From Nanobdellati archaeon (lineage in GTDB: Archaea; EX4484-52; GLR71), in contig JAHYJR010000001.1 in NCBI GenBank assembly GCA_019429005.1, positions 104,663 through 168,662 on the forward strand: a DNA stretch of 64,000 nucleotides, read 5' to 3'. The position numbers and the translations under genes are program-made. The notes beneath the pieces are model-generated. The model saw nothing but the letters and a program-made list of their open reading frames with translations. It searched no databases and had not been told where the DNA came from. Positions 3,179 through 15,697 of the stretch are shown here, in pieces; the first letter of the stretch is position 1, and the number at the start of each line of letters is the position of its first letter.

Positions 3179-4396
3179 TCAAATCAAAAATTCCTCTTTA
3201 AGAAATGTTCTAATTTTTACAACAACTGAATCCGATACAGACATATTTAATACTCTTGTTCTTCCATGTCTTCCACGTGATATTACTTTTGTTTCAATTA
3301 TACTTAACATTTCAAGTTCGCTAATAAGATCAGATACACGCCTTGTTGTAAGTGGTTTAAGCCCAACAGATTTGCATAAATTATCATAATAACTAAAAAC
3401 ATCTCCAGTATAAATATATGGTTTACCTTCTTTTTCAAGAAGTTTTATTATACTATATAATACAACCTTTGACTGTTTTGGCTGAACTTTTACAGCTTCC
3501 ATTATATAATCAAGATTAATTTTAGATTGTGCAAAATCAACATGCTTTTCATCAACATAAAAATCTTGATCTCTTTCAGCAATTTCACCTGAAACTCTTA
3601 AAAGATTCAATGCACGTCTTGCATCACCATGTTCTTGAGCTGCAAGAGCTGCACATTTAGCTATTACACCATCACGTAAAATACCTTCACAAAATGCAAC
3701 TTTTGCCCTATCTGAAAGAATATTTTTAAGTTGTGTAGCATTATATGGTGAAAAAACAAGTTCTTCATCACAAAGAGAACTTTTTACTCTTGAATCAAGT
3801 TTTTCTGTAAATGTAAGATTATTTGATATACCAACTATTACAATATTACCTTCGTTATATTGATTCATTCTTGTAAGATTATACAAAAATTCATCTCCAA
3901 TTTTATCAACTAATGCATCAATTTCATCAAGAGTTAATATAATAATTTCCTTATGATTTTTTAGTGTATCAAAAAATATTTTATATATAGATTCTGTTGG
4001 AAGCCCTGTTGGTGGAACATGAACATCAAATAAGCTTAATATATAAGCAAGAAGTCTATATTCAGTATCAGCTACACGTTTCATCTTACAATTAACATAA
4101 AGTGTAGTAATCTCAACATTATTCAAATTAGCTATTTTTTTTAATTGATCTATAACATGTTTTGTCACAAGAGTCTTACCAGTACCAGTGATACCATAAA
4201 TAAAAACATTTGAAGGTTTATTATTTTTTAAAATTGGTGCAAGAACAGAACCAAGCTGTTTCATTTGTTCTTCTCTATATGAAACATTTTCAGGAGTATA
4301 ATTTAAACTTAAAGCATCTTTTTTTAAAAAAATATTTTTTGAATTAATATATTCTGTAAACAAGTTCTCAAGAGTTTGTTGAACCAAATTTATCAC
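3179..4396 (-). CDS. cdc6: Orc1/Cdc6 replication initiator
   Basis: Walker A GITGTGKT, Walker B LDEID, GDARRAL, and C-terminal winged helix SRGRHGRT. Confidence 0.97.
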   Translation of the reverse strand: MINLVQQTLENLFTEYINSKNIFLKKDALSLNYTPENVSYREEQMKQLGSVLAPILKNNKPSNVFIYGITGTGKTLVTKHVIDQLKKIANLNNVEITTLYVNCKMKRVADTEYRLLAYILSLFDVHVPPTGLPTESIYKIFFDTLKNHKEIIILTLDEIDALVDKIGDEFLYNLTRMNQYNEGNIVIVGISNNLTFTEKLDSRVKSSLCDEELVFSPYNATQLKNILSDRAKVAFCEGILRDGVIAKCAALAAQEHGDARRALNLLRVSGEIAERDQDFYVDEKHVDFAQSKINLDYIMEAVKVQPKQSKVVLYSIIKLLEKEGKPYIYTGDVFSYYDNLCKSVGLKPLTTRRVSDLISELEMLSIIETKVISRGRHGRTRVLNMSVSDSVVVKIRTFLKEEFLI

Positions 4397-4426
4397 GTCA
4401 AAAATTTACTATTTTTATTGCTATAG

Positions 4427-4673
4427 TTCTATAGGAAATGAAGGTTTATATACATATCGCAAAAAATTATAAAAATTACACCCACACCCCTAGATTTCCT
4501 GTCGAATTATATATTAATACTAATATTACAATTAAATATAACAGTGTTATATATGTTATATATTACAATATATTATAATAATTAAATAAAAAATCAATAT
4601 AATTAATATAATAACCTTTTTAACCCAATTAATAGATTTTTGTTTAATAAAACTCCATAAGAAACTAAAGGGT
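4427..4673. promoter_or_regulatory. cdc6-adjacent candidate replication origin with three ORB-like boxes
   Basis: TTCTATAGGAAATGAAGGTTT (4427-4447, +), TTCGACAGGAAATCTAGGGGT (4486-4506, -) and CTCCATAAGAAACTAAAGGGT (4653-4673, +) in very AT-rich DNA. They resemble the archaeal ORB pattern TCCA..GAAA...GGGGT. Confidence 0.75.
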
Positions 4674-4839
4674 GAGGGTGTTATTATTAATATTATATAA
4701 TTCAAAAATCATAATCGTCTATGTATTAAATTATTTATTTATTATATAGTTTTTTGAAAAATAATTATTAAAAAATATTATATTTTTTATAAAAAATAAT
4801 AATTTATAATTTTTAAATTATTTTTAATATTTAAATCAC

Positions 4840-4980
4840 TTATAATCTTTATTTATAATAAATTTATAATCTTTATTTATAATAAATTTATAATCTTTAT
4901 TTATAATAAATTTATAATCTTTATTTATAATAAATTTATAATCTTTATTTATAATAAATTTATAATCTTTATTTATAATA
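4840..4980. repeat. 24-bp perfect tandem repeat, about 6 copies
   Basis: Unit TTATAATCTTTATTTATAATAAAT; the single C recurs at 4847, 4871, 4895, 4919, 4943 and 4967. Confidence 0.95.
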
Positions 4981-5689
4981 TTTTTTTTAATTTTAGTATA
5001 AGTGTATCTATATTTTTGATCTGTGTTATAATTATAGGTATATTTTCCATTTCAGCTATTTTTTTTGCTAACTTATCAAGTTTTTCCATATTATGTAAAA
5101 CAACAACTCCTGGTTTAAGATTAGTAACTTTCATTGCAATTAACGAGCTTCTTCCACTTTTTACACCTGTAAATATCATAGCACGTTCTGTTGTTAGACC
5201 ATAAAGTCTTATCAATTCAGATGGTGAAAGACCAACTATAGCTTTAATTGAATCAATTATAGTGTAACCATATATTTTCTTATTAATATTATCTTTACCA
5301 ACAATAATTTTACCATCTATAGTATCTATAAATTCTTTTAATGTTACAGGTCTAGGTATTTCTTTTATATCAATTATAGCATCATTTAATATATTTTTTG
5401 AATGTAGGCTTGTAAACTCATTTATTATAAGACTACCATTTTTTTCATCAATTTTAATTAAAGCATTTACAATTTTTTTAATCATTTCAATACCTGGACT
5501 TTTTCTTCTTCCACTTTCATAATCAGATATAACTGAAGGCATTACTTTCATTTCAGCAGCAAGATTTCTTTGTGATACTCTAAACATATTTCTCCATTTT
5601 TTAATTGTATTATTAGGTTTATCAGAAATTACAATTTCACCCGCCATGTTTTTTGATAACTGATCCTTTGATACATCTTGTTCATTCAT
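4973..5689 (-). CDS. Archaeal Xre-type HTH regulator with C-terminal DRTGG-like domain (COG1709-like)
   Basis: MAGEIVISD...KWRNMFRVSQRNLA...SVISDYESGRRKSPG, plus YGLTTERAMIFTGVKSGRS. Confidence 0.85.
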   Translation of the reverse strand: MNEQDVSKDQLSKNMAGEIVISDKPNNTIKKWRNMFRVSQRNLAAEMKVMPSVISDYESGRRKSPGIEMIKKIVNALIKIDEKNGSLIINEFTSLHSKNILNDAIIDIKEIPRPVTLKEFIDTIDGKIIVGKDNINKKIYGYTIIDSIKAIVGLSPSELIRLYGLTTERAMIFTGVKSGRSSLIAMKVTNLKPGVVVLHNMEKLDKLAKKIAEMENIPIIITQIKNIDTLILKLKKIL

Positions 5690-6006: not shown

Positions 6007-6951
6007 TTAAACAATATAGAGTAAGTTCTGCAAAAGATATAAAATATATATAAAATACATTAAAATATATAAAACACCTTCAGAACGCGTAATATTTTTT
6101 TTCCATAAACCTATCATAAAGAACATTGATATTATAAATAAGAAAATCAAATCAATTCTAATTGATTGAAAATCAATAACAAGTGGATTTATAATTGCAG
6201 CAATACCAAGAACCCCAATTATATTGAATATATTTGTTCCAATAATATTTCCTATAGCTATTCCAAATTTACCCTTTTTTGCTGCAGCAATACTTACAGC
6301 AATTTCAGGCATACCAGTACCAGCTGCAATAATTATAGCACTTATTGTCCATTCAGATATTGACAACATTTGTGCTATATTTATGGTTGAATTAAGAAGC
6401 ATCTTACTACTTATAAACACAAAAAATAGTGTAATTATTATTATTGTTACTTCTTTTGTTTTTGATATTTCATTATTTTTTTCAACATGATTGTTTTCGA
6501 TATCATATTTAATCGTATATAATGTGTATAATACAAGAGCTAATACCATAATAATTCCAGTCAATCTATTAATTCCACCCGTTAACATAATTAGATATAA
6601 AAAAATTACAGATAATATCATAATTATACTATCTCGTTTTATAATTTTCCAGCGTTTTACAAAAAGAGGTGAGATTATAGCCGCAAGACCCATAATTATA
6701 GTTATATTAAATATATTTGATCCTACAATATCACCCATAGCTACTGCGCTATAATTATTAAATGAAGCAACTGAACTTACAACAAGTTCTGGTAATGAAG
6801 TTCCATAAGCAATCAAAGTAAGTCCTATTACTGTTCCAGAAAGACCCACAGCAGATGCAAATCTTGTCGCAGAATCTATAAGCTTACTTGATGATACAAC
6901 CAATATTGCAATACTTATAATAAGAATTATAATTTGAACATAAAGAAGCAT
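6007..6951 (-). CDS. Ca2+/Na+ antiporter (CaCA/YrbG family)
   Basis: Two alpha repeats, GTSLPE...GSNIFN and GTGMPE...GTNIFN; multi-pass hydrophobic protein. Confidence 0.93.
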   Translation of the reverse strand: MLLYVQIIILIISIAILVVSSSKLIDSATRFASAVGLSGTVIGLTLIAYGTSLPELVVSSVASFNNYSAVAMGDIVGSNIFNITIIMGLAAIISPLFVKRWKIIKRDSIIMILSVIFLYLIMLTGGINRLTGIIMVLALVLYTLYTIKYDIENNHVEKNNEISKTKEVTIIIITLFFVFISSKMLLNSTINIAQMLSISEWTISAIIIAAGTGMPEIAVSIAAAKKGKFGIAIGNIIGTNIFNIIGVLGIAAIINPLVIDFQSIRIDLIFLFIISMFFMIGLWKKNITRSEGVLYILMYFIYILYLLQNLLYIV

Positions 6952-7139: not shown

Positions 7140-8483
7140 ATGGTTATAAATACTGACCTTCATTCTCATTCAGGTTATGCAGGTGGTGTTGGGACAATAT
7201 CACTTGAAAACATTGAAAAGACAATGACCTTAAAAGGTATAGATATATTTGGAACGGGTGATTGTCTTCATCCTAAATGGAATAAGCATCTTAAAAATAT
7301 TCTAATCGAAAAAGAAAATGGTCTTTTTTCATTGAAAAATAGTGAAACTGATAAGCGATTTCTTTTACAAACTGAAATAATAATAACTGTAGATATCAAA
7401 AATGCACGAAAAATAGTACACACCCTTATCTTTTTCCCATCATTTGAATGTGTTGATAAGGTTACAAAATGTCTTGAATCTTATGGTATGAAAAACACTG
7501 TAGGAAGACCTTTTCTTAAATGTAACAACAATATTGATGTTTCAAATAAATTAGAAAAAATATTGAATTTAGACGATTTAATTGAAATTGTTCCAGCACA
7601 TATTATGACACCTCAAGGTGTATTTGGTTCAAACAACCCAGTTTATTCAATGAAAGAATTTTACGGAAATGTTTCTGATAGGTTTAAAGCAGTAGAAACA
7701 GGTTTAAGTGCAGATCCAAACATTTTAAATATGATACCCGAGCTTGACAATATATCATTAATATCTAATAGTGATACGCATTCAGCTGCATTGAATCGTG
7801 TCGGACGTGAATTTACATCTTTTGATATTAATAAACCAAGCTATGATTCTATAATAAATTGTATTAGAAATAGAAAAATATTGAAGACGGCAGAATTTAA
7901 TCCAGAAGAAGGAAAATTTTTTCTGACAGGACACAGGGCAGGAAAAAAAGATCATAATGATTCATATTGCGTTTTTTCACCTAAAAACACACCCCCGACA
8001 AAGATATGCCCAATCTGTAATAAATCACTTACAATAGGGGTTCTTGAACAGGTAAAGAAAATATTTGATATGCAGATAAAAAATATAAATCCCGAAGACC
8101 GAACACAATTAAAGCGAGACTTTGTGAGTACGGTTCCCTTGATAGAAATAATTGCATACACGCTCGGTATAAAGACCGTATTATCACCCAAAATTAATAG
8201 TATATATCGTGACATTATAAAAACGATAGGCGACGAAAGCAAATTGTGGTTTAATTCTAAAAGTGACATTCAAAAGAGACTTTCAGGCGTAGTTGATGAT
8301 ATTTTGATTTCAAACATAATACAAGTTAAAGATGGTTGTTTTGGTTTTAGTCCACCCGGTTTTGATGGTACTTATGGCGATCTTGTAATAGGTAAAAAGA
8401 TTGATTTTAACAATATAAATACAATATTTTGTAATCCAAATCAAACAGTTAATATCGAAAATAATCAAAAAAAACTTTATTAA
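7140..8483 (+). CDS. endoQ: Endonuclease Q family (PHP domain plus Zn finger)
   Basis: DLHSHS, GTGDCLHP, PAHIMTP, ETGLSAD, SNSDTHS..GRE, CPIC...GV and PGFDGTYG. Confidence 0.88.
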   Translation: MVINTDLHSHSGYAGGVGTISLENIEKTMTLKGIDIFGTGDCLHPKWNKHLKNILIEKENGLFSLKNSETDKRFLLQTEIIITVDIKNARKIVHTLIFFPSFECVDKVTKCLESYGMKNTVGRPFLKCNNNIDVSNKLEKILNLDDLIEIVPAHIMTPQGVFGSNNPVYSMKEFYGNVSDRFKAVETGLSADPNILNMIPELDNISLISNSDTHSAALNRVGREFTSFDINKPSYDSIINCIRNRKILKTAEFNPEEGKFFLTGHRAGKKDHNDSYCVFSPKNTPPTKICPICNKSLTIGVLEQVKKIFDMQIKNINPEDRTQLKRDFVSTVPLIEIIAYTLGIKTVLSPKINSIYRDIIKTIGDESKLWFNSKSDIQKRLSGVVDDILISNIIQVKDGCFGFSPPGFDGTYGDLVIGKKIDFNNINTIFCNPNQTVNIENNQKKLY

Positions 8484-8629: not shown

Positions 8630-10402
8630 ATGGAAAGAAGTGAAATATTAAAAACCTTTACAAAAAATGGTATTATTACAGGTGCAGATTCACTTGATTA
8701 TCTTGAAAACAAAGATATAAATATAGCTATTCTCGTAACAAAAATTTTAGATACTGGAAAATTGTTTATAACACAAAAACTTCTTGAAAGCATGTTTGAT
8801 AGTGATATAGAGTTAAATCCAGATAAAACCTTAAATCCAGATAAAACCTTAAATCCAGATAAAACCTTAAATCCAGATAAAACCTTAAATCCAGATAAAA
8901 CCTTAAATCCAGATAAAACCTTAAATCCAGATAAAATTTCAAATTCCAACAAAACGTCAAATCTAGATAAAACCACGAATTCATATAAAACAGTTAATGA
9001 AACTCACGATAAAACACTTAATGAAACTCACGATAAAACACTTAATGAAACTCGCGATAAAACACCTAATAAAAGTAAAAAGTCTAACGACAACAAAGAT
9101 TCTAATGAGATTAAAAATATATTAAAACCTATAGAAGTCCACAAAACAATATCATTTATTGCAAAAGATTATGAGGGCTCTGTGAGGCTTCATGCACAGA
9201 ACGAATTTAAAGGGCATAAGAGAGATTTATCATCCTTTGTTGATTGTTTTAATAGTCGATATAATAAGATAAAGAACTTTTTTATGAAACATAGAGATCT
9301 TAGAGGTACAAGATCAATATCAAGGTTCAAATCAACAGAAAACGAAAAAGATGTTTCTATAATAGGTATAATATCTGAAATAAATTTAACCAAAAATGGT
9401 AATACATTACTCAGTGTTGAAGATCCAACAGGGATAATTGATGTTGTTATAATGAAAGATAAGAACCTTGAGGTTGATTATCTAATACGGGATGAGATTA
9501 TTGCTTTTTCAGGTTCAGTTGCTCGCGGAACCTTTTTTGCAAATTCAATTATGTTTCCAGACATTGCACCCAAAACACCATTTAATATAACAGATCCTAT
9601 AAGCAGTGTTTTTATATCTGATGTGCATATTGGAAGTAATGAATATTTAAATAAAGTAATGGACCGTTTTTTAAAATGGATAAATGATCCAACATCAGAC
9701 GCATCAAATGTAAAATATTTATGTATTGCAGGCGACCTTGTTGATGGTGTCGGGATATATCCAGGTCAGCAGAATAATCTCAAAATAAAAAACATTTATG
9801 ATCAGTATAGTGCTTTTGAAGAGCTTATTGAAAGAGTACCAGAACATATAGAAGTAGTATTATGTCCAGGAAATCATGATGCTGTAAGACAATCAGAACC
9901 ACAACCAGCCTTTGACAAATCACTTTTACCAAATCTCGTTGGATTTAAAAACGTTACACTTGTTTCAAATCCCTCTTTTTTTGAACTTCATGGATTTGAT
10001 GATAAACAAGGTGCAACAAGTTTAATGTATCATGGTTATAGTTTTAGTAAAATAATAGATGCAATACCCGCACTTCGTGTTAAAGGTATGAGGGAACCAC
10101 AACATGTAATGAAAGAGTTATTACGCAAAAGACACCTTGCACCTCTTTATAGTTCTAACATAATGTTACCTGATATTGAAGATAATCTTGTAATCAGTGC
10201 AGCACCACACATATTCCATACAGGAGATCTACATAGTTTTGCTATTGATAAATACAAAGGTGTCCATCTTTTCTCAACAAGTACCTTTCAAGGTCAAACA
10301 TCGTTTATGGACCGTGTAGGTCACCTCGCAAACCCTGGAAAAGTAACAATTTTAGATTTAAAAGAAAATAGACCATATTTTAAGGATTTTATTACTAGTT
10401 AA
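8630..10402 (+). CDS. polB: DNA polymerase D small (proofreading) subunit DP1
   Basis: OB-fold EDPTG, ISDVHIGS, AGDLVDGVGIYPGQ, PGNHD..RQSEPQP, YHG and RHLAP. Confidence 0.95.
   Translation: MERSEILKTFTKNGIITGADSLDYLENKDINIAILVTKILDTGKLFITQKLLESMFDSDIELNPDKTLNPDKTLNPDKTLNPDKTLNPDKTLNPDKTLNPDKISNSNKTSNLDKTTNSYKTVNETHDKTLNETHDKTLNETRDKTPNKSKKSNDNKDSNEIKNILKPIEVHKTISFIAKDYEGSVRLHAQNEFKGHKRDLSSFVDCFNSRYNKIKNFFMKHRDLRGTRSISRFKSTENEKDVSIIGIISEINLTKNGNTLLSVEDPTGIIDVVIMKDKNLEVDYLIRDEIIAFSGSVARGTFFANSIMFPDIAPKTPFNITDPISSVFISDVHIGSNEYLNKVMDRFLKWINDPTSDASNVKYLCIAGDLVDGVGIYPGQQNNLKIKNIYDQYSAFEELIERVPEHIEVVLCPGNHDAVRQSEPQPAFDKSLLPNLVGFKNVTLVSNPSFFELHGFDDKQGATSLMYHGYSFSKIIDAIPALRVKGMREPQHVMKELLRKRHLAPLYSSNIMLPDIEDNLVISAAPHIFHTGDLHSFAIDKYKGVHLFSTSTFQGQTSFMDRVGHLANPGKVTILDLKENRPYFKDFITS
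8813..9065. repeat. In-frame tandem repeats in the DP1 linker: 18 bp x7 (LNPDKT) and 24 bp x3 (NETHDKTL)
   Basis: TTAAATCCAGATAAAACC at 8813-8936 and TTAATGAAACTCACGATAAAACAC at 8994-9065. Confidence 0.95.
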
Positions 10403-10448
10403 AATAAAAAAGCAAATTGGAATTTTATATCCAATTATGTAGTATCAC

Positions 10449-10691
10449 TTAATCCTTTAATTCAATTGATTGTGATACATCTATCAAAGGTTTGAGTGCT
10501 TCTGTTAAGTATTTTATATTTATTGGATTACTGAATGATATTATAATATCTTTCATTCCATCATTTTTATCAAGTTCTTCGATATCAAATTCTTCAATTA
10601 TATCGATTTTCTTAATCACATCTTCCAAAACAGATTTTTTAATATTCGCCGTAAATTCAATACTTGTTACATTCATTTTTAAAACCCCCAA
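10449..10691 (-). CDS. Small acidic hypothetical protein; true start probably MNVTS at 10676
   Basis: Fills the DP1-DP2 gap, has plausible globular composition, and a G-rich SD-like run precedes the internal ATG. Confidence 0.6.
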   Translation of the reverse strand: MGVLKMNVTSIEFTANIKKSVLEDVIKKIDIIEEFDIEELDKNDGMKDIIISFSNPINIKYLTEALKPLIDVSQSIELKD

Positions 10692-10843
10692 AATACTGTT
10701 ATGTTAATATATCAGTATAGACGTAATGGTTGATTAAACTATTTAAACTTAAATTAGAATGACTTTATAAATGTTATAGGTGTTATCAAAATATTGTTAA
10801 TAACTTATAATATTTACTAAATAAGTATTTTTTAAGTTCTTAA

Positions 10844-13800
10844 TTGGTGATTATTTTGTCAGATTCTTCAAAAATACAAGGTCCTACTATTGATAAAGGT
10901 ACAAGGCTATATTTTGACACATTAAATAATCAGATTAAAGCAGCATATAGCGTTGCAGAAAAAGCAAGAGAGCAAGGTAAAGATCCCGAAAAAAAGATAG
11001 ATATACCTATTGCAGAAGATCTTGCAGCACGTGTTGAAGGTCTTGTTTCAATGATATTTCCAGATCTTATGGGTTCAGGTCTTGCAAATGGTATACGTAA
11101 ACTTGAAACCGAATTTGGAAAAAATGATGAGCAAGTAGCACTTTATATTTCTGAACAGGTTGCAAAAGACGAATTTTGTAAGTTTGAAAGTTTAGAGAAA
11201 TCTCTTGAAGCCGGAGTTCGTGTAGGCGTGGCTTATATCACTCTTGGTGTTGTTACAGCACCACTTGAAGGGATAACAGCAGTTAAGATAATTAATAATT
11301 ATGTTTCAATTTATTATTCCGGTCCAATAAGGAGTGCGGGCGGTACAGCAAGTGCAATGTCTGTTATAATTACAGATTATGTCAGACGTAAATTAGGTAT
11401 TGGTGATTATGTATCTGAAGATATTGAACGCAAACGTTATGCCGTTGAATTAGAAGATTATTATCGTCTTGTCGGTATGCAATATCATCCACAAGATAAG
11501 GAAGTTGAGATGATAATAAAAAATGTCAAGATTTGTCTTGATGGTGATCCTACAGAAAAATATGAAGTTTCAACCCATAAAGGTTTACCTCGTGTTGCTA
11601 CAGATAAAATACGTGGCGGTATGTGTCTTGTTGTTGGTGAAGGTCTTACGTTAAAAGCTCCAAAATTATTAAAACGTATAAAAAAGATTGGTAAAAAATT
11701 TGGTCTTGAAGACTGGTTATGGCTTGAGGATTATAATAAGCTTCAAAAAGATATACATTCAGTGAAATCTAAATCTGATGAAGATGATGGACCTAAAGCT
11801 AAATACACTCCATCTACAAAATATGTAGAAAAAGTGATTGCGGGAAGACCTGTAATTGCACATCCGGGAAAACCTGGTGGTTTTAGATTACGATATGGTA
11901 GATCAAGGACAGCGGGAATTGCAGCCACATCAATACATCCTGCAACTATGCATCTTACAGAGTTTATAGCTGTTGGAACACAACTTGCAACAGAGTATCC
12001 AGGAAAAGCAACAGTATGTACACCTGTGGATACTGTTGAAGGTCCCGTTGTACTTTTGAAATCTGGTGAAGTTAAAAATATTAATACACTTGAAGAAGTT
12101 AAAGCTGAAAGAAAGTATGTAAAGACAATATTATCTTTAGGAGATATCTTGATACCTTATGGTGAATTTGTAAGTCAAGGTAAAATACTTCTTCCTTCAG
12201 CCTATTGCGAAGAATGGTGGGCACTTGAAGCAAAAAAAGCAATTGAAGATGGAAAATCTTGTGAATCTATTGAACTGTTTACCGAAAAGCCATTTATTAA
12301 ACCAGATTTTAAAGTCGCATTAGATATTTCAAAAAAACTTAATATTCCTCTACATCCTGCATATAATTATTTTTGGCATGACTTAAAAAAAGAAGAGTTA
12401 AGCCGTTTAGTTGATATGGTTTCAAATGGAATGTATCTGAAAGGCATTCTAAAAATTAAAAATGAAAATATTAAAACCGTTTTAGAACATCTATGTATCC
12501 CTCATAAAGTTGACAGAACAAAAGAAGATTCAGAAATGATTGTATTTGAAGATGCTGTTGCAGATTGTTTATATACGATTCTTGGAGAACCATCTAAAGA
12601 CAACATAAAAAAACATATAAGTCTTATTGAAGCCGAATCTGATGTGATGAATGCTTTAAACAAATTGTCTCCAATAAAAATTAAAGAAAAAGGTTTAACT
12701 AGAATTGGCATGAAAATGGGTCGTCCCGAAAAAGCTGAAAGGCGTATTATGAAAGGAAGACCACATGTACTTTTTCCTTGTGGTGAAGAAGGCGGAAGAA
12801 TGCGTAATATTATGGAAGCTTATAAGGGTGGTGTAGTCAGTGCATTTCTTCCAACATTTCGTTGTCCAAAATGTAATAAGACTGTATCATTTAGTATTTG
12901 TAATTTTTGTGGTTCAAAGACACGAGAATATCGAGTTTGTAAAACCTGTTCACGTTCAACATCTGATAAAGAACATTGTGGTACACCAACATTACGTTAT
13001 AAAAGCATGAAAGTCGATATAAAAGAGCTTGTTGATGGTGCGGTTAAAAATATAGGTATGGCTGGACTTCCAGCACTTTTTAAGGGTGTGCGTGGTTTAT
13101 CTGGCAAAGAAAAAGATTTAGAATTATTGGAAAAAGGTTTACTTCGTGTTAAATATGAACTTTTTGTGAATAAGGATGGAACTACACGTTTTGATGCAAC
13201 TGATATGCCTATGACTCATTTTAAGCCTTACGAGATAAATGCACCTATTGAGTTATTAAAAAATATTGGTTATACTGAAGATGTTTATGGAAAACCGCTT
13301 GTATCTGATAATCAGATTCTTGAGCTTAAAGTTCAAGATATAATACTCTCTGACAATCCAGCTTTCTCTGGGGCAGACTATTTTATAAAAATCTGTCAAT
13401 TTGTGGATGAAGTTCTTGTCAAGATTTATGGTTTAACGCCATATTACAATGTATCAGTTAAAAATGATCTTATAGGGCTCCTTGTTATTGGTCTAGCACC
13501 ACATACTTCAGCAGGTATAGTAGGACGAATTATTGGTTTCACACCAGCGCGTGTTTGTTATGCACATCCATTTTGGCATTCTGCAAAAAGACGAAATTGT
13601 GATGGTGATGAAGATTCTATATTACTTTTAATGGATGCGCTTCTTAATTTCTCAAGGAAATTTTTACCAACTACACGTGGTGCGGCTACAATGGATGCAC
13701 CTCTTGTTTTGACAACAAATTTGAATCCTGAGGAAGTGGATGATGAAGCATGGAATGTTGATGTAGATGCAGATTACAATCTTAATTTTTATGAAGATAC

Positions 13801-14359
13801 TTTTGAATATAAACCACCTTGGGAGATTCGTGATAAAATAAAGCTCGTTAATGATTATATCGCAAAGCCTGAAGCATACCATAGCATGTTCACACATGAC
13901 ACTACAAATATTAATGATGGCCCTTACAGATCTAAATATGTTGTTTTGGAATCTATGTCTGAGAAAATTATGGCACAATTAGATCTTGCTGTAATGATAT
14001 CTGCTGTTAATGCTTCTGATGTTGCAGAACGTGTTTTAGAAAAGCATTTTCTTAAGGATATAAAAGGTAATTTGCGAACATTTTCAAAGCAAAAAGTACG
14101 TTGTTTGTCTTGTGCTTTTAAGTTTAGGAGGATGCCTCTTATTGGAAAATGTCCAATGTGTGAAGGTAAATTGCTTTTGACTGTTCATGAAGGTACTATA
14201 CGTAAATATGTAGAACCTGCTAAATATTTGATGGATCGGTTTATTATTACACCCTATTTGATGCAACAGTTTGCTTTTCTTGAATTTGAAATAGATTCGC
14301 TTTTTGGGAAAAAGGCGCGTCAGCTGAATCTTATTAGTTTTAATAAGTCAAAAGATTAA
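10844..14359 (+). CDS. polC: DNA polymerase D large catalytic subunit DP2, no intein
   Basis: GPIRSAGGT, GGFRLRYGRSR, VNKDGTTRFD, KRRNCDGDED and Zn fingers. Confidence 0.98.
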   Translation: MVIILSDSSKIQGPTIDKGTRLYFDTLNNQIKAAYSVAEKAREQGKDPEKKIDIPIAEDLAARVEGLVSMIFPDLMGSGLANGIRKLETEFGKNDEQVALYISEQVAKDEFCKFESLEKSLEAGVRVGVAYITLGVVTAPLEGITAVKIINNYVSIYYSGPIRSAGGTASAMSVIITDYVRRKLGIGDYVSEDIERKRYAVELEDYYRLVGMQYHPQDKEVEMIIKNVKICLDGDPTEKYEVSTHKGLPRVATDKIRGGMCLVVGEGLTLKAPKLLKRIKKIGKKFGLEDWLWLEDYNKLQKDIHSVKSKSDEDDGPKAKYTPSTKYVEKVIAGRPVIAHPGKPGGFRLRYGRSRTAGIAATSIHPATMHLTEFIAVGTQLATEYPGKATVCTPVDTVEGPVVLLKSGEVKNINTLEEVKAERKYVKTILSLGDILIPYGEFVSQGKILLPSAYCEEWWALEAKKAIEDGKSCESIELFTEKPFIKPDFKVALDISKKLNIPLHPAYNYFWHDLKKEELSRLVDMVSNGMYLKGILKIKNENIKTVLEHLCIPHKVDRTKEDSEMIVFEDAVADCLYTILGEPSKDNIKKHISLIEAESDVMNALNKLSPIKIKEKGLTRIGMKMGRPEKAERRIMKGRPHVLFPCGEEGGRMRNIMEAYKGGVVSAFLPTFRCPKCNKTVSFSICNFCGSKTREYRVCKTCSRSTSDKEHCGTPTLRYKSMKVDIKELVDGAVKNIGMAGLPALFKGVRGLSGKEKDLELLEKGLLRVKYELFVNKDGTTRFDATDMPMTHFKPYEINAPIELLKNIGYTEDVYGKPLVSDNQILELKVQDIILSDNPAFSGADYFIKICQFVDEVLVKIYGLTPYYNVSVKNDLIGLLVIGLAPHTSAGIVGRIIGFTPARVCYAHPFWHSAKRRNCDGDEDSILLLMDALLNFSRKFLPTTRGAATMDAPLVLTTNLNPEEVDDEAWNVDVDADYNLNFYEDTFEYKPPWEIRDKIKLVNDYIAKPEAYHSMFTHDTTNINDGPYRSKYVVLESMSEKIMAQLDLAVMISAVNASDVAERVLEKHFLKDIKGNLRTFSKQKVRCLSCAFKFRRMPLIGKCPMCEGKLLLTVHEGTIRKYVEPAKYLMDRFIITPYLMQQFAFLEFEIDSLFGKKARQLNLISFNKSKD

Positions 14360-14542
14360 ATTATATTAATTATTTTAAATTCAAAAATACTTTTTTTAAA
14401 TTTAAGTAACTTTATATTCGTCTAATAAAAGTCTATATTATCTTGCAGTTATCTTGTTTTTACTTTTCATATGAACAAGATGAACTATAAACCAAAAGTT
14501 TTATATACACTTTTTGTTTTTGTATATTCCACCTAATCATAG

Positions 14543-15033
14543 TTCCATAGGAACTTGTGGGGTCTGTGAAATTAACATTTTTTGTTTTTGTATATATAAT
14601 CATGTTTTTATACTCCTTTTCATACGAAATCAAGCATTTAATATTTTAAAAAGTGTTTTAAATGTGTTTTAAGCCCTTATTTTGCTTTATGAACTATCTA
14701 CCTAAAACTATATAAAGTGTTTCCATACGAAATGAAGGGGTCTGTGAATGTAACACCTTTTATTTTTTAAGTATCTCCATATGATTTAATGGGGTCTCTA
14801 TAAGAAACGAAGGTTAACTATTTTAAATTTCTGCCTCTTTTATACCTTAAACAGTAATATTTGATTGTGAAATACAAACCTATAACTATATAAGTAGTTC
14901 CATAGGAAATAGAGGGGTATGTGAAATTAACGTTTTTTTGTTTTCAAATTTAAAATCTAGTAAACATAGATATTTACATAGGAAATATAGCCCCCGTATA
15001 AATTACGAGCCGTTTTAAAGGAAATCAAGGGGT
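14543..15033 (+). repeat. Array of 8 co-oriented ORB-like 21-mers within a degenerate ~178-bp triplicated unit
   Basis: Boxes start at 14543, 14618, 14721, 14775, 14796, 14898, 14974 and 15013. Consensus TTCCATANGAAATNAAGGGGT, the same motif as upstream of cdc6. Confidence 0.8.
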
Positions 15034-15040
15034 TATGAAC

Positions 15041-15697
15041 TTAATATACTTCTTTTTTTAGTTCATGTAACAATGTGTTTATTTTATGTTCATTATTTTC
15101 TATTACATCGCCATGACCTGGAAGTAAAGTCTTAATTTTAATTGAAAGTAATTTTTCAATGCTATTTTTCATATCTTTTTTACTTCCACTTTCAAGGTCA
15201 ACTCGTCCATATGTTTCCGAAAAGATAGTATCTCCAGAGAACAAAATTTGTCTTTTTTCATCATATATACAGATAGACCCATCCGTATGTCCTGGTGTAT
15301 TAATTATTGTGAACTTCACATCACCAATACGTATTGAATCATTATCATGTAATTTTAACGAAATTTTTTGTTTTTTTGCTTCTTTTCCAAACATAAACGC
15401 ACCTGTTTTGAGACTATCTCCACTTTCAATACAAAATGCATCTTTTTCATGTATAAGTATTTTGGCATTTGTGAACAACACGTTTGCTGATGTATGATCA
15501 TGGTGGCAGTGTGTATTTATTATAGTTTTTATATTTTCAGGTTCAATTCCAACAGATTTAATACATTTTATTAGTCTTTCTTTATGTAAACATAATCCTG
15601 TATCGATGAGTGTATCATTATTTATTAGATATATATTGGGTTCCATACTGCCTGCATGAATGTATATTATATCTTTTGCAATTTTTTTAATTTTCAT
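15041..15697 (-). CDS. MBL-fold metallohydrolase (glyoxalase II-like)
   Basis: THCHHDH, TPGHTDGS, SGDTIF and PGHG. Confidence 0.9.
   Translation of the reverse strand: MKIKKIAKDIIYIHAGSMEPNIYLINNDTLIDTGLCLHKERLIKCIKSVGIEPENIKTIINTHCHHDHTSANVLFTNAKILIHEKDAFCIESGDSLKTGAFMFGKEAKKQKISLKLHDNDSIRIGDVKFTIINTPGHTDGSICIYDEKRQILFSGDTIFSETYGRVDLESGSKKDMKNSIEKLLSIKIKTLLPGHGDVIENNEHKINTLLHELKKEVY

Follow-up and report, generated by a model that had tools for sequence, protein, structure and literature searches.

A conserved, spacing-constrained second cluster of predicted ORB boxes downstream of the DP2 gene in a DPANN archaeon

Background

Second clusters of ORB boxes have been known since 2007, and we found no established function for them. 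The closest described case is that of the Thermococcales, where a second cluster of ORBs and mini-ORBs, conserved throughout the order, is located inside dp1, 1.5 kb from oriC (Matsunaga et al. 2007, PMC1904270). In that study Cdc6/Orc1 bound this cluster in ChIP and gel shift experiments, and looping with oriC was raised and likened to the two DnaA-box clusters around the Bacillus subtilis dnaA gene. The same paper describes the Methanothermobacter origin as carrying arrays of 13-bp mini-ORBs that are bound cooperatively by Cdc6-1 (PMC1904270). For Sulfolobus oriC1, PMC12141716 states that the ORBs bind the initiator with fixed polarity and that both inverted ORBs are required for activity. 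Among the texts returned by our literature search there was no publication on ORBs in DPANN, and the search on Aenigmarchaeota replication origins and Cdc6 gave none.

Here we report on an array of ORB-type boxes between two convergent genes of a Nanobdellati archaeon. Its sequence and distribution identify it as a real and conserved second ORB cluster under spacing constraint, which does not form a new category. The original prediction knew of no description of such an architecture; the Cdc6-bound second cluster in dp1 of Thermococcales (PMC1904270) is one.

Methods

The window, i.e., the whole stretch of DNA that was analysed, comprises 64,000 nucleotides (assembly GCA_019429005.1, contig JAHYJR010000001.1, positions 104,663 to 168,662), and all coordinates refer to it. 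The assembly that was scanned consists of 1.08 Mb in 15 contigs with ~29% GC and is rated 93.5% complete. Gene identities in the window are Pfam profile matches. The class of the source genome is represented by one order of 42 small genomes, and the search of the class added a single genome to this order. Candidatus Aenigmatarchaeota is the label of the nearest named records.

Using the boxes of the window itself to build the matrix makes a genome scan circular, and this own-box matrix was therefore replaced in the genome scan by a matrix built from 45 boxes of relatives only (the relatives-only matrix). The number of relatives having the cluster was obtained by manual cross-tabulation of the DP2 3' ends against the box matches in 40 relatives.

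Results

Two box clusters on either side of the PolD genes

The genes and boxes discussed below are listed in Table 1. A single PF09079 match was obtained in the whole assembly, and the Orc1/Cdc6 gene of the window is the only one found. The two ORB clusters, referred to as cluster A (beside cdc6) and cluster B (the array and its equivalents in relatives), are separated by the dp1 and dp2 genes (8630-14359). The open reading frames in the gap between DP2 and the MBL hydrolase gene are of low complexity and do not exceed 57 amino acids. No Rfam family matched the window at the gathering score, and the only match in the gap, to a plant microRNA, had an E value of 0.16, which is chance level. Conservation of the 447-aa ORF (7140-8483), which is located between the origin and dp1, is limited to the family of the source genome.

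Table 1. Positions of genes, predicted boxes and associated elements in the window
Feature	Position	Strand	Remarks
Orc1/Cdc6 gene (cdc6/orc1)	3179-4396	-	Cdc6_C, E 6.8e-27
cdc6-proximal ORB, cluster A	4426-4447	+	26.4 bits; abuts cdc6 start
Left ORB of inverted pair	4486-4507	-	23.7 bits
Candidate unwinding element	4508-4651		144 bp, 89.6% AT
Right ORB of inverted pair	4652-4673	+	15.6 bits relatives-only matrix; 21.7 bits own-box matrix
HTH gene, HTH_3 (XRE-type)	4973-5689	-	Pfam
Na/Ca exchanger gene	6007-6951	-	Pfam
447-aa ORF	7140-8483	+	no Pfam domain at E ≤0.01
PolD small subunit gene (dp1)	8630-10402	+	Pfam
PolD large subunit gene (DP2/polC)	10844-14359	+	PolC_DP2_cat, E 7e-124
Gap DP2/MBL hydrolase	14360-15040		681 bp between convergent genes
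Full ORB a1, module 1	14542-14563	+	19.8 bits relatives-only matrix; 26.9 bits own-box matrix
Mini-ORB b1, no G-string	14617-14638	+	75 bp after a1; mini-ORB rank 12 of 2,156,332; 9.2 bits full matrix
TATA-like element ACCTAAAACTATATAA	14700-14715	+	ends 4 nt 5' of a2
Full ORB a2 (module 2); extension and T tract follow	14720-14741	+	34.2 bits, top match in genome
Extra box, weak core, intact G-string	14774-14795	+	16.5 bits; core alone rank 579, not distinctive
Mini-ORB b2	14795-14816	+	75 bp after a2; mini-ORB rank 5 of 2,156,332; 13.9 bits full matrix
TATA-like element ACCTATAACTATATAA	14878-14893	+	ends 3 nt 5' of a3
Full ORB a3 (module 3); extension and T tract follow	14897-14918	+	33.7 bits
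Mini-ORB b3	14973-14994	+	76 bp after a3; mini-ORB rank 18 of 2,156,332; <9 bits full matrix
Terminal ORB with G-string	15012-15033	+	22.6 bits; 8 bp before MBL gene stop codon
MBL hydrolase gene	15041-15697	-	Lactamase_B, E 7e-30; convergent with DP2

The cdc6-side cluster

By its sequence, the cdc6-side cluster (4426-4673) is a canonical origin with inverted ORBs around an AT-rich stretch. Specifically, the 5' ends of the boxes at 4486 (-) and 4652 (+) are turned toward each other, and a palindrome, TATAACAGTGTTATA (TATAACA-N-TGTTATA), is positioned at 4537-4551 in the middle of the AT-rich core. The same TATAACA-N-TGTTATA sequence recurs in cluster A of relatives belonging to several families (L039, L040, L042-L045, L052), making it a candidate site for a second origin factor. 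The layout of inverted boxes and AT-rich core also recurs in relatives, and the inner DNA of cluster A is 80-90% AT in 8/8 loci, which is 20-28 points over the locus mean.

In the cdc6-proximal box at 4426, GGTTT replaces the G-string and the box runs into a TATA-like stretch on its cdc6 side; its 20-mer is identical in at least six genomes of four families, which suggests that it is a likely site of cdc6 autoregulation. In the window, and likewise in relatives from at least four families, the HTH_3 (XRE-type) gene is adjacent to the origin cluster, and it could encode an origin-associated DNA-binding protein. Between this gene and the origin cluster there is a perfect 24-bp tandem repeat (4840-4980, 5.9 copies, 100% matches), and more degenerate AT-rich repeats are present at 4729-4851.

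On the 287-kb contig the cumulative GC skew has its minimum at approximately 7 kb of the window and the MK disparity its maximum at approximately 10 kb. This skew turn puts the origin in the region and does not separate 4.5 kb from 14.8 kb.

Eight co-oriented boxes in three modules

With the own-box matrix, eight ORB-type 22-mers score at least 16.9 bits in the gap between DP2 and the MBL hydrolase gene. All are on the plus strand, as originally proposed, and no 22-mer on the minus strand of the gap reaches 16.9 bits with this matrix. Together they make up an array of three full ORBs (a1-a3), three mini-ORBs (b1-b3), a terminal full ORB and one doubtful box (14774), as judged from their sequences. 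The pairs are spaced as predicted, by 75 bp (14542-14617), 75 bp (14720-14795) and 76 bp (14897-14973), and the modules follow each other with a period of 178 bp (14542-14720) and 177 bp (14720-14897); the earlier box coordinates lie 1 nt to the right because a 21-mer had been used. An extension consisting of the G-string, TGTGAA, TAAC and a T tract, also noticed earlier, is present after the boxes at 14542 (where TGTGAA..TAAC and the T tract reach to about 14590), 14720 and 14897, and so is the shared 5' element, ACCTA..AACTATATAA, before 14720 and 14897. Two details of the original prediction did not survive scoring with the relatives-only matrix: a box at the proposed start of the array (14463 and 14465 score -36 and -26 bits, respectively) and a weak inverted box at 14672 (-9.6 bits).

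The boxes are rare in the genome

When both strands of the whole assembly were scanned with the relatives-only matrix, the eight top matches were all in the gap or on the cdc6 side, i.e., at 14720, 14897, 4426, 4486, 15012, 14542, 14774 and 4652 in descending order (scores in Table 1), and the top score elsewhere was 15.3 bits. The genome-wide scan thus confines these matches to the array and the cdc6 side, and with this matrix and assembly the motif is absent above background outside the two loci. The second boxes of the pairs, which are without the G-string, do not stand out from the background with the full matrix, and they rank high among all positions when a 17-nt mini-ORB matrix is used. 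Moreover, a 20-nt consensus allowing up to 3 mismatches gave 3 matches in the window compared to 0.01 expected, and none of 100 shuffles (0/100) gave 3 matches.

The array lacks the hallmarks of an origin

Measured against oriC, the array has ORB-type boxes, those at 14720 and 14897 being the two strongest in the assembly. Inverted boxes are missing, with the top minus-strand score in the gap being -5.6 bits, and so is an AT-rich core, the inner DNA of the array being 73% AT compared to a locus mean of 72%. The equivalent clusters of seven relatives have an inner DNA of 60-72% AT, and the range over 8/8 loci is 60-73%. The suggestion that the array is a second, autonomous and canonical origin is thus not supported, as both an inverted box and an AT-rich core are lacking.

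We considered whether the array could nevertheless be an independent second, or even the true, origin, in which head-to-tail ORBs together with short AT-rich 5' elements would load helicase, perhaps in one direction. The full-length ORBs of the array equal or surpass the cdc6-side boxes, the AT-rich 5' face of each strong box is the face that abuts the unwinding element at a canonical origin, and the skew turn, being between the clusters, is compatible with 14.8 kb. Furthermore, the only ORBs found in one family of relatives form a same-strand pair. Against this, the array has neither an inverted partner nor an extended AT-rich core, and PMC12141716 describes Sulfolobus oriC1 as inactive on loss of either inverted ORB. 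The family with the lone pair shows no reversal of the GC or MK disparity at the pair on its 79-kb contig, and in relatives the gap can be <300 bp and filled by boxes. Taken together, we find an independent origin at the array improbable. The absence of a disparity reversal on the 79-kb contig, in itself weak evidence, also weakly argues that lone same-strand pairs are not origins either.

Four readings had been offered originally: a second origin, a bipartite origin, a datA-like sink and a phased scaffold. The autonomous origin among them is not upheld, and an accessory initiator site that works with, or buffers, the nearby origin fits better. In 27/40 relatives the cluster has the same position and strand.

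Position and strand are conserved in relatives

Downstream of DP2 an ORB on the DP2 strand was present in 27/40 relatives, and none (0) had one on the other strand. These 27 relatives span seven of the eight families, the counts per family being 7/9, 1/5, 3/3, 1/1, 0/4, 13/15, 1/1 and 1/2; as the relatives are kin these counts show inheritance and not independent events. The box is within about 1.1 kb of DP2 in 23/27, and the distances in the other four are 1.2, 1.2, 2.1 and 3.1 kb, of which the latter two follow gene insertions. In these relatives the region downstream of polC holds a same-strand cluster, mostly with two boxes and with a spacing that is specific for the lineage.

In the mapped loci the usual layout is HTH gene, inverted ORBs with AT-rich core, cdc6, dp1, dp2, at least two same-strand ORBs and a convergent gene, and in eight of these loci two ORB clusters are 6.5-10 kb apart on one contig. 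In the family of the source genome an inversion has moved cdc6 outside the two clusters. The cluster is intergenic and placed after DP2, and neither the window nor the mapped relatives have a box of at least 16 bits within DP1. To its right, most families have a gene for a TctA-family membrane protein, and the family of the source genome has the MBL hydrolase gene; since this neighbour varies, the cluster goes with dp2 and not with the neighbour. Some relatives have a whole gap of <300 bp that is filled by boxes.

Among the relatives with a DP2 match, 11/38 have no cluster downstream of it, and two relatives were without a DP2 match. One family, with all four of its genomes, is among these 11, as is a sister-genus genome from the source genome's family for which 704 bp were available. 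The cluster missing behind DP2 in 11/38 indicates that it is dispensable or movable.

Where the satellite cluster is far from DP2 (2.1 kb in G005:C187 and 3.1 kb in G010:C2, L041) the DP2 strand is kept and the cluster is still at the 3' end of the TctA-family gene; in G010, genes for a NUDIX protein, a CCA-adding enzyme and enolase are located between DP2 and the cluster. Tight same-strand ORB pairs, 28-38 bp apart, are also present in two families on contigs without cdc6 or DP2 (G013:C2:26336-26385, L057; G019:C2; G017:C64, L055; G029:C4, L056), either between Fic and M50-peptidase genes or between P-type ATPase and uridine-kinase-like genes. G013 has no box beside cdc6 or after DP2. These pairs on other contigs imply that closeness to the origin is not obligatory. 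As a separate observation, the match to the DP2 C-terminus is split in two within one open frame of 1303-1665 aa in G013:C20, G016:C25 and G024:C41, which suggests an intein in DP2 of these three genomes.

A metagenome scan for a relative of the same genus gave 80 loci with at most 60% identity, and one of these (L197) has boxes, i.e., two on the same strand, 81 bp apart and directly after DP2. Among the DP2 loci of named genomes, 76/80 are from other lineages (Methanosarcina, Methanobrevibacter, other DPANN etc.) and have no box downstream of DP2; the matrix is lineage-specific and the absence outside the class is therefore weak evidence.

The constant orientation could also be read as that of a polar roadblock, in which oriented initiator, bound where the cdc6-dp1-dp2 block ends, would make the rightward fork pause or prevent read-through between the convergent transcription units. 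Orientation relative to DP2, and hence to the outgoing fork, is constant in 27/27, and the cluster is always at the dp2 3' end and mostly in convergent gaps. The boxes would, however, meet the fork in the same sense as the flanking ORB of the origin, which the helicase passes anyway, and the T tracts alone could terminate transcription. We know of no barrier activity of Orc1-ORB complexes, and we consider a roadblock very unlikely.

A relic is disfavoured as well. If the boxes were decaying remnants of a former duplication at the origin, this would account for the degenerate state of the b boxes and of 14774 and for the lineages in which the cluster is missing; yet in seven families the cluster has retained its position, strand and box sequence amid flanking DNA that is randomised, leaving a relic with hardly any credibility.

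Spacing is kept while the spacers have diverged

Most relatives have two boxes with a start-to-start distance of 75-126 bp that is lineage-specific: 75 bp in six genomes of one genus, 82-83 bp in four genomes, 85 bp in two genomes and three named MAGs, 81 bp in one metagenome contig, and 90, 111 and 126 bp in one genome each. The sister genus in the family of the source genome has four boxes with spacings of 43, 63 and 115-117 bp. The 75 bp in the window is the distance from the TATA-preceded box to the next box, while that of the other genus runs from the first box to the TATA-preceded box, and we do not claim homology of the two. With two, four and eight boxes, the class offers a natural copy-number series within DPANN.

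When the three modules of the window were compared after anchoring, the a boxes had 73-86% identity and the extension 68-79%. The spacers had 20-28% identity compared to 31% in shuffled sequence, and the spacing was within 1 bp. In the sister genus the region is 344-345 nt in 7/7 genomes, with pairwise identities of 65-90%. Selection on the spacing, as had been suggested, is supported by spacers at chance identity, a spacing within 1 bp and the near-constant length in the sister genus. Since the spacers are at chance identity with the spacing kept, the sequence comparison supports that the triplication is old or fast-evolving with its length under constraint. Tandem Repeats Finder detected no 178-bp period in the array because the modules are too diverged, and the period is visible in anchored comparisons only.

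A TATA-like element before the strong boxes

The 5' element shared by modules 2 and 3, for which the original prediction gave no interpretation, looks like a TATA box. Specifically, 13/14 aligned two-box loci have an A-rich element followed by a TATA-like octamer whose end is 2-4 or 10-13 nt 5' of the distal box, and a GTGAA motif follows this box in the aligned loci. All genomes of the sister genus (7/7) have ACCAAAA..TATATAA ahead of boxes 1 and 3, and the counterparts in the window are the elements at 14700-14715 and 14878-14893. The element looks similar to archaeal BRE/TATA promoter elements, in which a purine-rich stretch is upstream of the TATA box. An archaeal promoter would be followed by a gene or a stable RNA; in the window the flanking genes are convergent and the gap has neither a convincing ORF nor an Rfam family. 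Past ~12 nt beyond the box there is no conservation in the 14 aligned loci.

The pattern CCAAAA-N1-4-WTATAWA occurs 8 times in 452,870 bases of the relatives' loci, and 7/8 occurrences are at cluster B, so it is not the general promoter consensus of the lineage. We also considered that the element is a generic promoter, and these same counts weaken this reading. As the pattern is nearly exclusive to the cluster and has nothing to drive, the TATA-like element was treated as a specific part of the module.

We further considered an initiator-gated promoter. Here ACCAAAA/ACCTAAAA plus the TATA-like octamer would be a real promoter with its start site within the neighbouring ORB, a short or antisense transcript would be turned on or off by Orc1/Cdc6, and the array would mainly exert transcriptional control linked to the replication cycle. 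The distance of 2-4 or 10-13 nt to the cluster B box in 13/14 loci of several families, the element before boxes 1 and 3 in 7/7 genomes of the sister genus, and the T tracts after the boxes in the window agree with this, as does the fusion of the cdc6-proximal origin box to a TATA-like stretch. On the other hand, there is no gene to drive in the convergent gaps of the window and of most relatives, and the gap of the window has no convincing ORF or Rfam match; sequence more than ~12 nt past the box is unconserved, and the pattern is confined to 8 occurrences in 452,870 bases, 7 of them at cluster B. A gated promoter is, in our judgement, an unlikely explanation, if one to be kept in mind.

The TATA-like element and ORB units might also form a site of transcription-assisted initiation without an unwinding element, where the basal machinery would open the 5' face of the box or make a short RNA that stops at the T tract. 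Helicase loading at the array would then be in one orientation only, and the array would be the second, rightward half of a split origin, the other half being beside cdc6. We mention this speculation as a long shot.

Discussion

A proposed satellite of the neighbouring origin

We consider the array to be, with about even chances, a satellite Orc1/Cdc6-binding module of the origin region that serves as a sink or a looping partner for the neighbouring origin. The working origin would be the cdc6-side cluster at 4426-4673, where inverted ORBs flank the 144-bp, 90% AT element, and the array would occupy the far end of the origin-linked block of replication genes. The ancestral layout of the class was probably origin, cdc6, dp1, dp2, at least two ORBs on the dp2 strand and a convergent gene. 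From such a start the array would have grown from two boxes to eight in this genome by an old triplication of a unit comprising a full ORB, the extension and T tract, a mini-ORB at +75 and the TATA-like element.

Binding of Orc1/Cdc6 to the array, and with it each functional step, is a prediction from sequence. Initiator monomers would occupy the ORBs in a head-to-tail row directed away from the origin, and the randomised spacers with a spacing within 1 bp argue for a phased protein array. With no opposing box and no unwinding element the array is unlikely to load a head-to-head pair of helicases; instead it may influence how the neighbouring origin initiates. As a sink, it would hold initiator and be duplicated seconds after the origin fires. 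As a looping partner, it would contact the origin cluster across 8-10 kb, as proposed for the ORB clusters of Thermococcales.

The match between the boxes of the array and the origin's own ORBs supports the satellite reading, as do the single Cdc6 gene found, the lack of origin hallmarks in cluster B, the constant strand behind DP2 in 27/40 relatives, the constrained spacing, the skew turn between the two clusters and the precedent in Thermococcales. Against it, the cluster is absent behind DP2 in some families and same-strand pairs are present on other contigs, and a pure sink or loop does not explain the conserved TATA-like element 5' of the box. As a practical consequence, origin-calling software based on ORB clusters would falsely give two origins in these genomes.

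Comparison with known systems

The array belongs to the same box family as an oriC of the Sulfolobus oriC1 type, with the dyad core and G-string, and presumably binds the same initiator. It differs from a canonical oriC in having no inverted partner and no unwinding element and in not being beside cdc6, whereas cluster A has all three.

The E. coli datA locus titrates or inactivates the initiator. The array is outside the origin and without origin hallmarks; a datA-like sink would in addition not fire itself and would affect the initiator. With datA, and with the bipartite B. subtilis origin (PMC1904270), the array shares initiator boxes that are outside the unwinding region and would be duplicated soon after firing; the ancestral layout in relatives, with the initiator gene between the two clusters, is a further likeness to B. 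subtilis. These bacterial systems belong to another domain of life and have another initiator family, and the comparison is one of analogy only.

Multiple repeated boxes of the mini-ORB type are found in Methanothermobacter as well. There, according to PMC1904270, the repeats are in the origin itself, whereas our array is apart from the origin and has full ORBs and mini-ORBs mixed.

Like the array, the Thermococcales cluster (PMC1904270) adds a further set of initiator boxes to those of oriC, a short distance away on the side of the polD genes, and is conserved in its lineage. In contrast to it, the array is intergenic and after dp2 rather than in dp1, 8-10 kb rather than 1.5 kb from the origin, strictly head to tail, and accompanied by a TATA-like element and a GTGAA extension; binding is predicted here. 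The array is moreover triplicated with a fixed spacing of 75/178 bp, and cdc6 is outside both clusters after the inversion. It represents a clean intergenic case of a second ORB cluster, with one orientation, a lineage-specific and tightly held spacing and a coupled TATA-like element, and it gives predictions on cooperativity, helical-phase dependence and interplay with TBP/TFB that are suited to in vitro work with one small initiator.
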